From NCBI GenBank assembly GCA_034226945.1, contig CP120457.1, positions 1,054,001 to 1,118,000 of the forward strand: DNA of 64,000 bases, read 5' to 3'. Below are positions 46,348 to 51,949 of this stretch, one piece after another. The first letter of the stretch is position 1; each line of letters begins with the position of its first letter. The DNA is from Picochlorum sp. SENEW3. Its lineage: Eukaryota. The notes below the pieces were generated by a model. The model had not been told where the DNA came from. It saw nothing but the letters and a program-made list of their open reading frames with translations, and ran no database searches. The translations under genes were made by a program, and so were the position numbers.

Positions 46348-47872
46348 ATGTTCTTCGGAGGAGGTTTTCCTGGAGGGCATCCGTTTGGAGGGATGCCAGG
46401 CGGAGGAGGCCCTGTAAACAATTCAAAGTATTACGAGATTTTGGGCGTCAGCAAAGATGCAACAGCCCATGAAATCAAAAAAGCGCACAGGAAACTGGCT
46501 CTGAAGTACCATCCTGACAAAGGTGGGTCGAGGCACGATTGAACAACATGCCGATTTGAAACGCCGTTGGTTGCCGTCTGGGGTTCGGGGACGTTATTTC
46601 TACTGATTTTGTTTAATATTGGGTCATTAATGGAGATTGAATGGATCCATTGGCTACGCGGAGCAACCAAGAAGGAATCTTGTGGATTGCTTCTGGAATG
46701 TTTTGACCGAGGAGCCGACAAACTAACCAGTGTATGTGCATTTCATCGCAGGAGGGGATCAGGAAAAGTTCAAGGAGATTAATGAGGCATATGAAGTCCT
46801 TCGAGATGAGGAGAAGCGCGAAATTTACGACAAATATGGAGAGGAAGCTGTGAAAGACGGTTCTGGTATGGGTGGAGGAGCAGGCGGAGCTGACATTTTC
46901 GACCTGTTCGGTATGGGTGGTATGGGCCGCCGCAGCCAAAGAGAGAGAAAGAGCGAAGACGTCGTGCATCGCCTGAAAGTATCGTTGGAAGATATGTACA
47001 AAGGATCAACCAGGAAGCTTCAAAGCACCCGCAACATCAAATGTCCCGAATGTAATGCCACTGGCAGTAAGAGCGGGAAGAAATATCGATGCGATACCTG
47101 CCAAGGCAGTGGAATGGAGGTCAAGATGCGACAAATCGGGCCAGGGATGGTGCAGCAAATCCAGCAGCGGTGCTCTTCGTGCTCTGGTGCCGGATTCTCT
47201 TGTCCTCCGTCAGACAGATGCAGCAGATGCAATGGAAAGTGTCTGGTTGCCGACAAAAAGATATTTGAGGTTCACGTGGAAAGGGGCGCACGGCATAATT
47301 CAAAGGTTGTGTTCAGAGATGAAGCAGGGACTGATTCCCCAGATGTCCTACCAGGTGATTTGATATTTGTGTTGGAGCAGAAACCAAACGACTCCTTCAA
47401 GAGAATTGGAAACGATTTGTTCATGGAGAAATCTGTGAGTCTCGTGGAATCCCTGACCGGGTGCACCATGCACATCACTCAGCTTGATGGAAGGATTCTG
47501 GAGATGAAGACACCAGTTGGACACGTGATCACTCCAGACTCTTGGACATGCATCAAAAATGAAGGAATGCCAATCCAAGGACATCCATTTGATAAAGGCA
47601 ACTTGTACATTCACTTTACTGTCGAGTTTCCGGAGAAGATTACCGAGGAGCAGAGCAATGCCTTGAGAACAATCTTTGGCGCACCACAGTCCAATGGCAC
47701 ATCGCCCATGAATGAGGAGGACATCGAGGAGGTTGCCATGGTAACAGTGGCGGATATAGAAGAGGAAATCAAGAGGCGCAAGCAGTACGAAAGGACGTCG
47801 GGAGCTTACAACAGTGATAGTGATGATGACATGGGTGACAGACCACGAGGCGTGTCATGTGCTCAGCAGTAA
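46348..47872 (+). CDS. Type I DnaJ (DNAJA/ATJ2-like); intron 46523-46751
   Basis: HPD, G/F region, CxxCxGxG repeats, CaaX box CAQQ. Confidence 0.96.
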
Positions 47873-47955
47873 AAGCTACAGTATATTTTGCGATGTATTC
47901 TTTTCATTTTCTTTAATACTATCACATTGGTTTCCCTGCAGCATATGTGCTGTAG

Positions 47956-48181
47956 CCCACCCTATGCCGCTATGAACTATGGTTTGTACACTAGGGTACA
48001 AATGTCGGGTTCGTTCTTAGGTACAAAATAGTCAGTCCTCCTAGAGACCTGGTCAACATGTTTTCGTTGTCGAGCAACTCCCAAACCGTCACAACCAACT
48101 ACGCGACGTTTGGTCAAGTCTCCCACCAGGTAACCCAAGTCATGAGTATTCTTTCCCTCTCCGCACTAGCGTGGGTGCGGT
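47956..48181 (-). ncRNA. Putative Fanzor omega-RNA scaffold (right end); guide would extend into the flank 47955-~47936
   Basis: Stems CCGCAC/GTGCGG (48161-48180), GAGACTTG/CAGGTCTC (48115-48122 with 48044-48051) enclosing CCAAAC/GTTTGG, and TTTGTAC/GTACAAA (47983-48002), directly 3' of the Fanzor stop. Confidence 0.6.
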
Positions 48182-49397
48182 CTACCAGCAAATGCTGGCG
48201 GATGTTTCCTTCAAAAATTTGAGGAAGATGTTGAACGCTGCGAGGATGTCTCGATCAGCGTGAAAACAGCACGACTTGCATGCGAAGACCTTACTACCTC
48301 CTAATGTCTCGTGTAAAATACCACATCTACAGCACGTTTTTGTCGTATACTCTTCCCCAATAACGAACACATTTTCCCCCATCCTTTCTGCTGTTTGAAT
48401 CAATATCTCCCTAAACTTGGAATGATCATTGGTCATGACCGAGGCATATCATGTGACGGACGCTTTTGGTTCTCAAACGCCTATCAACACGTTTCGACAT
48501 ACTCTTCGACCCGAATTTTGGAATGACGATATTGTCATACATGGAACAGAGATAGTGTGCTGCTTTAAAGTGGAAATCCTTCAGAATGGACTGAAACCTT
48601 CCTGTCAAACGCTCAAACGCCATTTTCTTTCGCTTGCGTTTCCTATGGTCAGGTTCAGTATCTATACTCGACCGGAGTTTATCCAGGGCAACAAGCCTCG
48701 GGTATAACTTTGTTGCAAACCCTAGACCAAGTTCTGAGGTGCCTTCTGGAGACCATATAGACCCGAATGTTCTGACACCTGGGTCGATAGCACAGTAATT
48801 GGATATGGTCATTACCTTCTCCTCCCTTGGGACATGTACTGGAATGGCCAAGTAAAACTTGCCTTTTGTCTTCATCAACCTACAATCGTGATGTACAGGT
48901 ATCTCGATACTTTGACGCACTCTCAATACACCTTGGAGACTTCTCTTGTATATATGGACTCCTTGATGGTCAATACGGAGACCCGACGGACCTTTCTGAA
49001 TGAGAATAGATTGGTCACTGTCAGACTTCTTACGGAAACCCATTCGAAACCGTTCGATGTTCTTCCTTTTCCTGTTTGTGAGAGCAGCCTTGTATGCTCC
49101 TTGAAAATCCTTGATTGCTCCTTCTCTGATGTGCTTCGGTGTTGAAAGAAGCCACACCTTGCTACCTTGGATGTTCTTGTTAGTGACAAATCTGTTCCGT
49201 AGCCATTGAAACCAGTTCTTCTTCGTCGGAATGGTTCCTAGATTGTTTAAGAAACCCACACATTCGTTATATGTATATCGACAGGCGCCGAACCATTGAT
49301 TAAGCACTCTTTCCTGCAGGACCAGCTGGTCTTTTGTTGGGAATATTTCAATCCGACGAATTCTTGTTAGCCCGTCTTTTGTACTTTCTCCGACCAT
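48182..49397 (-). pseudogene. Fanzor2 / IS607 TnpB RNA-guided endonuclease, frameshifted by a 13-bp insertion at 48426-48438 (frame open upstream to ATG 49892)
   Basis: RIEIFPT..Q..LNQWFGACRYTYN, RuvC-I AIDPG, Fanzor-type IVIPKF, relocated catalytic E in GEEYTTKTC, Zn ribbon CCRC..CKSC, RuvC-III DRDILAAFNI. Confidence 0.92.
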
Positions 49398-49899
49398 AAA
49401 TTTTTTAACTGAAGACCGTGACAATTGAAATGATATCATCGACGAGTTCTTCTTCTCTTGATTTATGTTTGTCGTTAGAATCGCAGACGATCCTAACTCC
49501 TTTTCGTGCCAACATGAATTCGATGATATCGAACCCGAACCGAGCAAGTCGGTCCTTGTGAGCGACCGCAACAAACGAGACGCCTCCTTGCAGCGATCGT
49601 TGAAGAATGGATCGAAGGCCTTTTCGGTTCCAATTGAGTCCGCTTCCGATATCGGTGACGACCTCCCAACCAGGCATATACCGGACCTGTCGCTCAAGGT
49701 CATCTTTTTGCCCGCTCGATGATACTCTACAGTAACAGATTTGCGCTTGTTGCTTACCATCTTGAACCTCAATCCCATAATGCCTTTGTCCACTTGGCTG
49801 CACGACATATTTGATGCGGTCATTGTTCGCCCATTTGACAATGGTCTGACCAGAGACTCCGAAATGCTCGGCTGCTTTTTATCGCGACACATACTGCAT
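49348..49899 (-). pseudogene. tnpA: IS607 TnpA (MerR-like HTH + serine recombinase) with in-frame TAA at 49881-49879 and 49407-49405
   Basis: MQYVSR*KAAEHFGVSGQTIVKWAN, YCRVSS..QKDDLERQ, DIGSGLN..RKGL, AHKDRLARFGF, ELVDDIISIVTVFS*KIYGRRK. Confidence 0.92.
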
Positions 49900-50032
49900 A
49901 TTAATGATACATTATTTATGACTGATTAGCGCAATCATGTACTCTTATATAGAGTTATTCACAATTAAGTCAACTGCTGAAGCCCAATACTGAGAGAAGC
50001 TCTCATCAGTTCAAGTTAAATCTGCAGTCTAC

Positions 50033-50121
50033 TCTGGTCTGTATTTTGATTTTTTTAAAGTCATATTTTTAGTCGTATTTCAGTATACTGTGGCTGTGAG
50101 AAGTTAGAAATACAGACCAGA
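50033..50121. repeat. Perfect 14-bp inverted repeat enclosing 61 bp (MITE-like remnant?)
   Basis: TCTGGTCTGTATTT (50033-50046) and AAATACAGACCAGA (50108-50121). Confidence 0.65.
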
Positions 50122-50233
50122 ACTTCTCTCCAGCGTTGTTGACCAAGAATTGTTGAAAAATAGTGGTGAGTCCTGAGAAGGGACGCTGACCATTCAATAT
50201 ACAAATTTCAAGTGAAATATTTCGTTTCGTAGC

Positions 50234-51949
50234 ATGGCAGAACAGTCAGCAGCCTGCCACTGCACATGTTGCAGAAAAAATTCTCGTTCTTCTTTGGAGT
50301 TGAGGGAGCTGCACGCCAGGACATTATCGGAGATGAGGGGCTCCATCAGCAGCCTTACCACAAAGTACAAGTCGACGCTAGAGGCGATGGAAACACTTAA
50401 AAGGGAATCGGAGGAGAACAGAAGGCTAGGTGCCATGGCAGCCAATTCTGCTCAGATACACTGTGATGAGATTAAGAATGGCTTGCAGGCAATGTCTCTC
50501 GATGCAAACGAGTTGGTTCAGATTCTTTCGACTGAACTGAGCTCGGTGAAGGAAGAAAGGGATAAATTGAGGAGAAACCAAGACGTGCTATGCAGTAAAC
50601 TGTCCAGTATGTCCCAACCTGGTGTGGAGGAGAGAGCCGTTCTGGTTGGGGAAATTCAGGATCTAACGCGGTCTCGAGAAACTCTTCAAGTTTTGATAAG
50701 TAATTTGAGGACCAAGTGCTCAGACCTGGAGGCCACGGTTGCTTCGCTCCAGGATGAAAATGCGCGCCTGTTGCAGCGGGAACCCACAGATGCTCCTGCA
50801 GTGGATGGATTGAGGACCAAGTGCTCAGACCTGGAGGCCACGGTTGCTTCGCTCCAGGATGAAAATGCGCGCCTGTTGCAGCGGGAACCCACAGATGCTC
50901 CTGCAGTGGATGATTTGAGGACCAAGTGCTCAGACCTGGAGGCCACGGTTGCTTCGCTCCAGGATGAAAATGCGCGCCTGTTGCAGCGGGAACCCACAGA
51001 TGCTCCTGCAGTGGATGATTTGAGGACCAAGTGCTCAGACCTGGAGGCCACGGTTGCTTCGCTCCAGGATGAAAATGCGCGCCTGTTGCAGCGGGAACCC
51101 ACAGATGCTCCTGCAGTGGATGGATTGAGGACCAAGTGCTCAGACCTGGAGGCCACGGTTGCTTCCCTCCAGGATGAAAATGCGCGCCTGTTGCAGCGGG
51201 AACCCACAGATGCTCCTGCAGTGGATGGATTGAGGACCAAGTGCTCAGACCTGGAGGCCACGGTTGCTTCCCTCCAGGATGAAAATGCGCGCCTGTTGCA
51301 GCGGGAACCCACAGATGCTCCTGCAGTGGATGGATTGAGGACCAAGTGCTCAGACCTGGAGGCCACGGTTGCTTCGCTCCAGGATGAAAATGCGCGCCTG
51401 TTGCAGCGGGAACCCACAGATGCTCCTGCAGTGGATGATTTGAGGACCAAGTGCTCAGACCTGGAGGCCACGGTTGCTTCGCTCCAGGATGAAAATGCGC
51501 GCCTGTTGCAGCGGGAACCCACAGATGCTCCTGCAGTGGATGATTTGAGGACCAAGTGCTCAGACCTGGAGGCCACGGTTGCTTCGCTCCAGGATGAAAA
51601 TGCGCACCTGCTGAAGGCTCAAAGCAAGTCGCACCCTTCATCAGTTGAGAAGCTTCTCCGGCTCACAAGGGAGAATCAACACTTTGCAGTGAAGTTATCA
51701 GAGCAGGAGAACAAATCAAAGGCATTAGAATCAACAATTATGCTCCTGAATAAGTATCTTGACAGAGAGATCAATACTGGAGGAGTAGAAAATAGCTTGA
51801 TTGATATTTTGGATGACATTTCTTACATAAAGAGAACAACGAATTCACGTGAGGCCAAGGAGCTCATAGGAATGACTGAGAAAGGTTTGGAGAGAATCAA
51901 CGAACCTAGATTTCATGATTCCGGTCATCCAGTACTCCCCCAAACATGA
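50234..51949 (+). CDS. Coiled-coil protein containing a 35-aa tandem repeat
   Basis: 571-aa ORF; LRTKCSDLEATVASLQDENARLLQREPTDAPAVD[G/D] repeated. Confidence 0.8.
   Translation: MAEQSAACHCTCCRKNSRSSLELRELHARTLSEMRGSISSLTTKYKSTLEAMETLKRESEENRRLGAMAANSAQIHCDEIKNGLQAMSLDANELVQILSTELSSVKEERDKLRRNQDVLCSKLSSMSQPGVEERAVLVGEIQDLTRSRETLQVLISNLRTKCSDLEATVASLQDENARLLQREPTDAPAVDGLRTKCSDLEATVASLQDENARLLQREPTDAPAVDDLRTKCSDLEATVASLQDENARLLQREPTDAPAVDDLRTKCSDLEATVASLQDENARLLQREPTDAPAVDGLRTKCSDLEATVASLQDENARLLQREPTDAPAVDGLRTKCSDLEATVASLQDENARLLQREPTDAPAVDGLRTKCSDLEATVASLQDENARLLQREPTDAPAVDDLRTKCSDLEATVASLQDENARLLQREPTDAPAVDDLRTKCSDLEATVASLQDENAHLLKAQSKSHPSSVEKLLRLTRENQHFAVKLSEQENKSKALESTIMLLNKYLDREINTGGVENSLIDILDDISYIKRTTNSREAKELIGMTEKGLERINEPRFHDSGHPVLPQT
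50705..51610 (+). repeat. 105-bp minisatellite, 8 full units plus 1 partial, near identical
   Basis: Units start at 50705, 50810, ... 51545; the full units differ only at GGA/GAT and TCG/TCC. Confidence 0.97.

Follow-up and report, generated by a model that had tools for sequence, protein, structure and literature searches.

How does an IS607-type transposon come to lie between two nuclear genes of a green alga, and why does the reading frame of its nuclease stay open across the whole of its transposase gene? Both questions are raised by a unit of ~2.0 kb in the window analysed here, by which we mean the entire stretch of 64,000 nucleotides (nt) from contig CP120457.1 of Picochlorum sp. SENEW3 (positions 1,054,001 to 1,118,000 of the forward strand). 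The initial annotation, made from the letters alone, had recognised a TnpA/TnpB unit located between a DnaJ gene and a coiled-coil gene, and our analysis confirms this unit and places it on the minus strand. It is an IS607-type transposon with a Fanzor2-type nuclease. The identity of the element, its breaks, its site of insertion and the nesting of its two genes, together with the distribution of this arrangement over a clade, were observed directly, and the locus as a whole is very probably a dead IS607-family copy inserted between two Picochlorum nuclear genes, from a clade in which the nuclease open reading frame (ORF) is nested over tnpA.

Transposase and nuclease reading frames

The minus-strand frame starting at 49899 reads MQYVSR(stop)KAAEHFGVSGQTIVKWA...ICYCRVSS...DRLARFG...VFS(stop)KIYGRRKYK...(stop). 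The N-terminal stretch KAAEHFGVSGQTIVKWA, similar to a helix-turn-helix (HTH), precedes a Resolvase domain (Pfam E 3e-15), which is the layout of an IS607-type TnpA, and in the intact relative L003 (L, P and X numbers denote the loci, the proteins and the contigs of public runs that were compared) a weak HTH_17 match is accompanied by Resolvase at E 9e-20. The nuclease occupies a 488-codon ORF (49892-48426) in the +1 frame relative to tnpA, of which the last 320 codons are TnpB (OrfB_IS605 below the Pfam cut-off with 24.8 vs 30.5 bits, HTH_OrfB_IS605 just above its cut-off). The rest of TnpB is found one base out of frame in an 84-codon ORF (48436-48182) containing a Cas12f1-like TNB domain (PF07282, E 1e-16).

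Two marks define Fanzors and pro-Fanzors in PMC10711439, namely a DPG in RuvC-I and a Glu located six residues ahead of the first CxxC. The window nuclease has both marks, AIDPGVRT in the long ORF and EEYTTKTCCRC (E-x6-CxxC) further on, indicating a nuclease of the Fanzor/pro-Fanzor type; the zinc ribbon and the RuvC-III Asp follow as CCRC-x14-CKSC-x4-DRD, and D370, P371 and G372 vary little or not at all among 56 members of the clade. At the place of the canonical Glu the window reads IVIPKF. In L003, which is 76% identical, the Pro of IVIPAF falls on the canonical Glu (AVEDL) of the TnpB-like chain 9yyg, which has no Glu at the alternative site. For both halves of the nuclease the best match among solved chains was the mimivirus TnpB-like protein L79 (PDB 9b0l, E 9e-15 and 1e-9), followed in the case of the C-terminal half by Cas12m and Cas12f at E 1e-6 or weaker. 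An AlphaFold model of the L003 protein (pLDDT, the predicted local distance difference test score, 73 overall and mostly >85 in the core) also retrieved 9b0l first in a fold search (E 8.7e-24), and then the ISFba1 and ISDra2 TnpB proteins.

The Fanzor hallmarks listed in the initial annotation (AIDPG, IVIPKF, GEEYTTKTCCRCG, CKSCC, ADRD and RKRKRKK) could all be located in the translations. The basic motif RKRKRKK exists as described, but its reading as a nuclear localization signal (NLS) fares less well, given that the motif belongs to the core and that mimivirus L79 is basic there as well. A better candidate would be an N-terminal NKRK(R)S motif, by analogy with residues 1-53 of ApmFz2 as given in the accessible part of PMC11832414.

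The features of the element and of the adjoining host genes are the following.

47967..49985, minus strand: whole IS607-type Fanzor2 element of ~2.02 kb, with ends taken from the alignment to L001-L003 and from contigs with other flanks
49900..49985, minus strand: non-coding left end, beginning GGGCTTCAGCAGTTGAC and containing TATATAA (49951-49945), conserved with L001-L003 from GGG on
49348..49899, minus strand: tnpA pseudogene (HTH and serine recombinase), from its translation and Pfam Resolvase (E 3e-15)
49398..49892, minus strand: extension at the N-terminus of the nuclease, +1 relative to tnpA and open throughout, part of the 488-amino acid (aa) ORF
48426..49397, minus strand: first part of the nuclease core (WED/REC, RuvC-I AIDPG, IVIPKF), from Pfam and PDB 9b0l (E 9e-15), ending at a premature TGA (48428-48426)
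48182..48421, minus strand: last part of the nuclease core (GEEYTTKTC, zinc ribbon, RuvC-III DRD), TNB E 1e-16, with the stop TAG at 48184-48182
49314..49325, minus strand: 12-nt in-frame insertion (QLVL) in the nuclease, found neither in relatives nor in the X11 copy
48422..48434, minus strand: 13-nt frameshifting insertion in the nuclease, absent from relatives, from X11 and from one X3 contig, present in X9
47967..48200, minus strand: conserved 3' non-coding stretch with hairpins and the right end ...TCATAGCGG, highly conserved with L001-L003, ~25 nt missing
46348..47872, plus strand: host DnaJ gene, two exons and one intron visible (Pfam DnaJ, DnaJ_CXXCXGXG, DnaJ_C), its stop 95 nt before the right end of the element
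50234..51949, plus strand: host coiled-coil gene with ten 29-residue repeats, only coiled-coil-type Pfam matches, its start 249 nt beyond the left end of the element

The nuclease frame of the window has its ATG at 49892, only 7 nt after the ATG of tnpA, and is open through the entire tnpA; 165 codons precede the TnpB core. The same extension was found in the metagenome proteins P0002, P0003, P0004, P0006, P0015 and P0018 (40-70% identity, 521-566 aa) and also in P0005. At the DNA level, L001-L004 and the viral contig L005 (41% identity) have an intact tnpA of 200-212 codons in which the +1 frame is open throughout and the +2 frame contains 6-11 stops. In L005 the only Met able to give the whole core is located 4 nt after the tnpA ATG, and there is none between this first codon and the core. 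No Pfam match was obtained for the ORFs that flank the element in L001 and L005.

By TnpA alignment 79 viral and 80 prokaryotic loci were collected, and a pattern search over 164 loci returned 131 tnpA ORFs with 160 codons or more. The number of +1-frame stops in these 131 ORFs was at most 3 in 59 and at least 7 in 72, with no value between. For the 33 ORFs that have DPG and the alternative Glu and reach tnpA, the overlap measures 356-848 nt and is in the +1 frame in every case; one further ORF of this kind, a 233-codon fragment in L037, is short of tnpA (overlap 0 nt). ORFs matching neither Glu pattern overlap by 0-152 nt, except those of L064 (671 nt) and L087 (629 nt), which are members of the extended clade missed by the Glu pattern. 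The core profile begins at ORF residue 94-347 in the extended group and at residue 1-57 in the other; the cut between both groups was set at residue 90, and L021 (71) fell under it despite its long ORF.

A quick maximum-likelihood tree of 97 distinct TnpB cores, calculated without bootstraps, with some long branches flagged and with no named Fanzor2 sequence included, separates the extended ORFs from the rest by a single branch, with 58 vs 39 cores on its two sides (Shimodaira-Hasegawa-like approximate likelihood ratio test, SH-aLRT, 99). The side of 58 holds all the ORFs with DPG and the alternative Glu, and includes viral (also giant-virus) contigs together with contigs labelled Microcystis, Chamaesiphon, Dehalococcoidia (Chloroflexota), Competibacteraceae and Latescibacterota. 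The window is found inside this extended clade, grouping with L003, L001 and L002 (SH-aLRT 98) and then with L085 (100). The phylogeny proposed in the initial annotation therefore puts its core on the Fanzor2/pro-Fanzor side rather than with canonical TnpB (SH-aLRT 99). A search for the capsid protein (PF04451) of nucleocytoplasmic large DNA viruses in the viral records L005, L009 and L024 gave no match, and is uninformative since the controls were unmatched too.

L085 (2998-4990) is the closest relative in a named record, a 10.5-kb contig from a metagenome-assembled genome labelled Patescibacteria. Its TnpA is 61% identical, and it has the same nesting and the same right-end word TCATAGCGGA; given its shortness, the contig may have been binned wrongly. 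In P0002, P0004 and P0006, 14-22 residues of the extension are lacking exactly where tnpA encodes the region of the catalytic Ser, and, judged from the proteins only, tnpA may be dead in these three with the nuclease ORF still open.

An adaptation to leaky scanning confined to eukaryotes was considered as the origin of the nesting and dropped, as prokaryotic contigs show the same nesting. In the IS607 loci with canonical TnpB, tnpB is also in the +1 frame relative to tnpA, with an overlap of 14-152 nt in 25 of the 29 cases found, and the long overlap could have grown from a short one of this canonical type by upstream extension. Full-text searches of papers on IS607, TnpB or Fanzor gave none that describes the nesting of both frames.

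Signs of selection on the second frame

If the second frame is translated, it should leave traces in the codons of tnpA. Synonymous codons were shuffled within each tnpA of 28 loci, a conservative procedure since the codon pool is already poor in codons that make stops; 1.2-7.1 stops in the +1 frame were expected, vs none observed in 24 of the 28 loci (one or two in the other four), with P per locus from 0.22 down to <0.0002. Synonymous differences (pS) also appeared lowered. At equal nonsynonymous difference (pN) in tnpA (0.05-0.2) the median pS was 0.33-0.45 for nested (n=18, 5, 5) vs 0.59-0.74 for separate genes (n=23, 50, 81), the nested pairs being few and the pairs not independent. In the comparisons of the window with L001-L003, pS was 0.39-0.52 in tnpA and 0.70-0.81 in the non-overlapping core. 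The choice of individual codons points in the same direction, as in the nested class a conserved TnpA Val is GTG in 34 of 42 cases and an Asp is GAC in 50 of 54, whereas in the separate class this Asp is GAT in 44 of 64; the choices of GTG and GAC fix Trp (W) and Thr (T) in the second frame.

The extension itself carries the motifs K.L.P(F/Y)W...LWLPT.TD...NSWFS across 49 sequences with a G+C content from 27% to 58%. A profile of the extension gave a median of 205 bits on the nested +1 translations (151-228 in 13 held-out loci), 59.5 bits on tnpA of the separate class and about -2 on the +2 frame, indicating that TnpA accounts for some of the signal but not for most of it. When 1.84 billion proteins were scanned with this profile, 1844 cluster representatives were recovered, 687 of them at E 1e-30 or better, and in all except one of the 150 matches listed the aligned part began no later than residue 42 of the protein. 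From the avoidance of stops, the lowered synonymous change and the fixed codons we infer translation of the extension as a part of the nuclease.

Besides the small and non-independent set of nested pairs, several observations weigh against this inference. The permutation was not significant in 5 of the 28 loci, including L001-L003 (P 0.15-0.22), and the comparison of L001 with L002 shows the opposite order of pS (core 0.19, tnpA part 0.34), probably due to recombination between elements within the family. The subfamily of the window itself has LRSLT and SCW in place of LWLPT and NSWF, and in the AlphaFold2 model of L003 most of the extension (residues 1-97 and 119-177) is of low confidence, the helix 104-122 being its only confident part. 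Furthermore, the second frame of the 41 nested loci examined has its first ATG 4-10 nt after the tnpA ATG in 14, upstream of it in 4 and 43-241 nt inside tnpA in 23, the last group being at odds with closely spaced ATG starts. Prokaryotic members could also start at an internal GTG or TTG.

These data could be read in another way, with the long +1 ORF over tnpA as an untranslated by-product and the nuclease as a 396-aa core initiated at an internal Met (49397). The window, L001-L003, P0015 and P0018 do have a Met at the start of the core, P0005 is annotated with precisely 396 aa, and a mostly disordered prediction for the extension, the ~60 bits of its profile that tnpA conservation gives alone and the weak permutation values of L001-L003 would all suit such a by-product. 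However, the core of P0002, P0004, P0006 and L005 does not begin with a Met, and the +1 frame is open in 59 of 131 tnpA ORFs that belong to one clade only and extend over the whole range of G+C mentioned above. The lowered synonymous change in tnpA and the codon choices that fix W and T in the second frame also stand against it, as does the structured N-terminal domain of ApmFz2 (PMC11832414). We consider the untranslated by-product improbable and retain a translated extension as the preferred reading.

The copy in the algal chromosome

The left end of the element is exact at 49985, where the similarity to L001-L003 begins with GGGCTTCAGCAGTTGAC, a word that occurs a single time within the window, and contigs with other flanks break at 49982-49985. 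The right end is located at ~47967 (...TCATAGCGG), with breaks of the other-flank contigs at 47978-47984. Thus, of the extent 47956..49985 initially assigned, the left limit stands and the right one moves from 47956 to ~47967. In keeping with IS607, no inverted pair joining the two ends of the element was detected, and the flanking sequences (...CAGTATT and CATAGGG...) show no duplication. The TATATAA reported ~50 bp upstream of tnpA is indeed present, 52 nt before the ATG; relatives have TATATGA or CATATGA at this place, so the TATA-like word is not conserved.

After the nuclease stop, ~215 nt are strongly conserved with L001-L003. This stretch contains two hairpins, with a few compensatory changes among six sequences (in the more distant L085), and a search of Rfam gave no family match in it, the only hit being a chance-level miRNA match outside the element. 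For the mimivirus Fanzor2, the part of PMC10530073 at hand describes conserved non-coding DNA extending ~200 nt past the ORF, and the stretch fits a candidate scaffold of the guide RNA (omega/fRNA). L003 and L004, alone among the copies, have an 84-nt duplication inside it (L003 2470-2560).

The copy of the window has accumulated several breaks. tnpA has in-frame TAA codons at 49881-49879 and 49407-49405, at both of which relatives have Ser, and a 12-nt deletion, the relatives having four more residues after YM. In the nuclease, relatives read RHMMCLGH(A/S)KFR unbroken across the site of the 13-nt insertion, and at the right end ~25 nt have been lost in comparison with relatives and X9. With two TAA codons in tnpA and a damaged right end the copy lacks competence for transposition and, as judged from its letters, is dead. 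An alternative genetic code in which the TAA codons of tnpA would be read through was rejected; the host DnaJ ends in CAQQ-TAA and relatives carry Ser at both places. The inactivation proposed by the initial annotation is therefore borne out by the frameshift, the two TAA codons and the right-end loss. Its two short insertions, 13 nt (48422-48434, frameshifting) and 12 nt (49314-49325, in frame), are real and absent from relatives. Its account of the damage was incomplete, as the tnpA stops, the tnpA deletion, the right-end loss and the open +1 frame had gone unmentioned, and the 396-aa ORF that it restored is correct for the core but is only the core, the nuclease ORF of relatives having 521-571 codons and starting beside the tnpA ATG. 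Rebuilding would not be needed to obtain a working protein, since apparently intact relatives (L001-L005) exist.

In the database the locus is represented by P0001, which is located on a contig of 1,133,345 bp, bears the name "Putative transposase R104 [Picochlorum sp. SENEW3]" and shares 100% identity with the query across 89% of its length, and a 95%-identical protein of 226 aa is annotated in Picochlorum sp. BPE23. We compared contigs of four public runs (X1, X3, X9 and X11) over 47400-50500. The X1 contig is identical to the window across the compared stretch and may come from the run behind this assembly. X9, from another study and with another organism label, has the element at the same site and spans its two junctions; it includes the 13-nt insertion and 25 further letters at 47966-47977. 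In the metagenome X3 both variants are present and both sides are covered, and there is a further flank at 49985. X11, with a third organism label, has a 2.4-kb contig with a copy 97% alike, matching from 47984 to 49982 and continuing into other sequence on both sides; this copy has neither the 13-nt nor the 12-nt insertion. The frameshift common to the window and X9 indicates that the decay is older than the split of those two strains.

The contigs of X9 and X3 that bridge the junctions indicate that the element belongs to the chromosome of the alga, and the X11 copy with other flanks indicates that it has moved, the family having been mobile in the past (X11, X3). Near-identical copies at different sites show recent movement in Picochlorum. 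As to its earlier history, a horizontal origin is plausible, as the nearest relatives are environmental and viral contigs. The extra letters of X11, five at 49770 and one at 49400, lie in the tnpA overlap and would shift both frames between those points; going by the table of insertions and deletions only, this copy may have lost TnpA and the extension and kept the core.

The same data bear on two other explanations of the locus. The deposited model P0001, of 526 aa and annotated as one protein with the frameshift skipped, would make it a live domesticated host gene with an intron. But that "intron" removes ~40 residues (YDNIVIPKFGSKSMSKRVDRRLRTKSVRHM...SKFR) kept by all relatives, the portion skipped contains the 13-nt insertion absent from other copies, and a tnpA with two stops next to a damaged right end does not agree with domestication; we regard the model as an annotation artefact and a live gene as very unlikely. 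Even less credence can be given to contaminating or misassembled bacterial or viral DNA. Relatives do come from viral and bacterial contigs and the G+C of the element (44-46%) is slightly under that of its neighbourhood (48-51%), but X9, with its different label and study, spans the two junctions at this very site, X3 covers both sides, the host contig measures 1.13 Mb and the 95%-identical protein comes from a further Picochlorum. The location in an algal nuclear chromosome, as originally claimed, is supported by the intron in the adjoining DnaJ gene, by the position of P0001 on the 1.13-Mb contig and by the bridged junctions, and the doubt that the element might be unlinked to its algal flanks is answered by independent contigs crossing both of them.

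On the other flank, the coiled-coil gene (50234-51949, plus strand) consists of ten near-identical 29-residue repeats, LRTKCSDLEATVASLQDENARLLQREPTDAPAVD[G/D]. The strand opposite these repeats is open for 389 codons, probably a by-product of the repeat.

Proposed overprinting and comparison with known systems

By analogy with ApmFz2 and TnpB, in working members of the family the TnpA serine recombinase would move the element, and the nuclease, with a guide RNA from the conserved 3' end, would cut sites empty of the element. About 600 nt would be read twice, once as TnpA and once, in the +1 frame, as an extension of the nuclease of 150-200 residues, which may have arisen by overprinting of tnpA in a prokaryotic ancestor. 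The closely spaced starts would allow one initiation region to serve both proteins, an arrangement that we hypothesize to be workable on a eukaryotic mRNA. We think it rather probable that the N-terminal domain specific to Fanzor2 was created by overprinting a transposase gene, and that the whole pro-Fanzor/Fanzor2 clade, in cyanobacteria, giant viruses and algae alike, double-codes ~600 nt. As the starts are often 4-10 nt apart, one message and one initiation region would then yield both proteins.

This extension corresponds most likely to the N-terminal domain of the mimivirus Fanzor2, for which the passages of PMC11832414 available describe an unseen NLS (1-53), RuvC-R (65-91) and a DNA-clasping thumb (109-130). 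With the clade profile A6, positions 139-184 of the extension align to residues 78-134 of L79, NSWF falling on NSWY. This alignment is part of one long match dominated by the core, which makes it moderate evidence for homology of the extension alone, and homology over the whole extension is inferred. In L018, a viral record of 1.02 Mb, the extension is too distant from L79 to align by a single-sequence search. As far as the cited texts were accessible, the passages of PMC11832414 on the structure of ApmFz2 contain neither the word TnpA nor the word overlap, PMC10530073 and PMC10432273 describe Fanzor2 N-termini as disordered with nuclear signals and use "overlap" only for the guide RNA, the word "overlap" is absent from PMC3627910 and PMC10711439, and "N-terminal" from PMC10711439.

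The element adds the green alga Picochlorum to the hosts of Fanzor2, which is useful but expected. The nesting, if real, would have wider consequences. It would provide an origin for the N-terminal domain of Fanzor2 that the 2024 structure called unique, and would count among the longest dual-coding stretches conserved in cellular mobile elements. If overprinting is the correct reading, a bacterial operon met the eukaryotic rule of one ORF per mRNA before moving to eukaryotes, and the nesting may bear on why only the Fanzor2 clade took hold there. In practice, gene callers rarely predict tnpA and the long nuclease together but only one of the two, and for nuclease engineering truncated "core" constructs may miss a working part.

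Among known systems, the most similar is ApmFz2/ApmFNuc (mimivirus L79, 9b0l), also from an IS607-type element. Both nucleases have DPG, the alternative Glu before the zinc ribbon and DRD, and in both the canonical Glu site is non-acidic (G in L79, P in the window). They share an N-terminal extension before the core, with the NSW(F/Y) motif aligned by the clade profile, and a conserved 3' non-coding stretch, of ~200 nt in the part of PMC10530073 consulted and ~215 nt in the window element. However, the identity in the fold alignment (L003 model) is only 21%, and the host of L79 is a giant virus, whereas the window element is a broken copy in the chromosome of an alga and belongs to a subfamily without LWLPT/NSWF. 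Pro-Fanzors, that is, the cyanobacterial IS607 TnpBs described in 2023 in NAR (PMC10711439, consulted in part), also have DPG, the alternative Glu and an IS607 TnpA partner, and the cyanobacterial loci L088, L090 and L100 belong to the same extended clade and have the same nesting as the window element, the difference being that they are prokaryotic. Canonical IS607 elements of Bacillota and other groups share the HTH-fronted serine-recombinase TnpA, the tnpB in the +1 frame and the lack of terminal repeats, but their overlap is of 0-152 nt, the +1 frame of their tnpA has 7-42 stops, their core starts at residue 1-57 and they form a separate clade. The arrangement itself is known from overprinted genes of viruses, such as turnip yellow mosaic virus, in which the start codons of two overprinted ORFs are 7 nt apart. 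As in those genes, two long ORFs in different frames start a few nt from each other and the younger product is largely disordered; here, in contrast, the nesting is located in a DNA transposon of bacteria and eukaryotic viruses.

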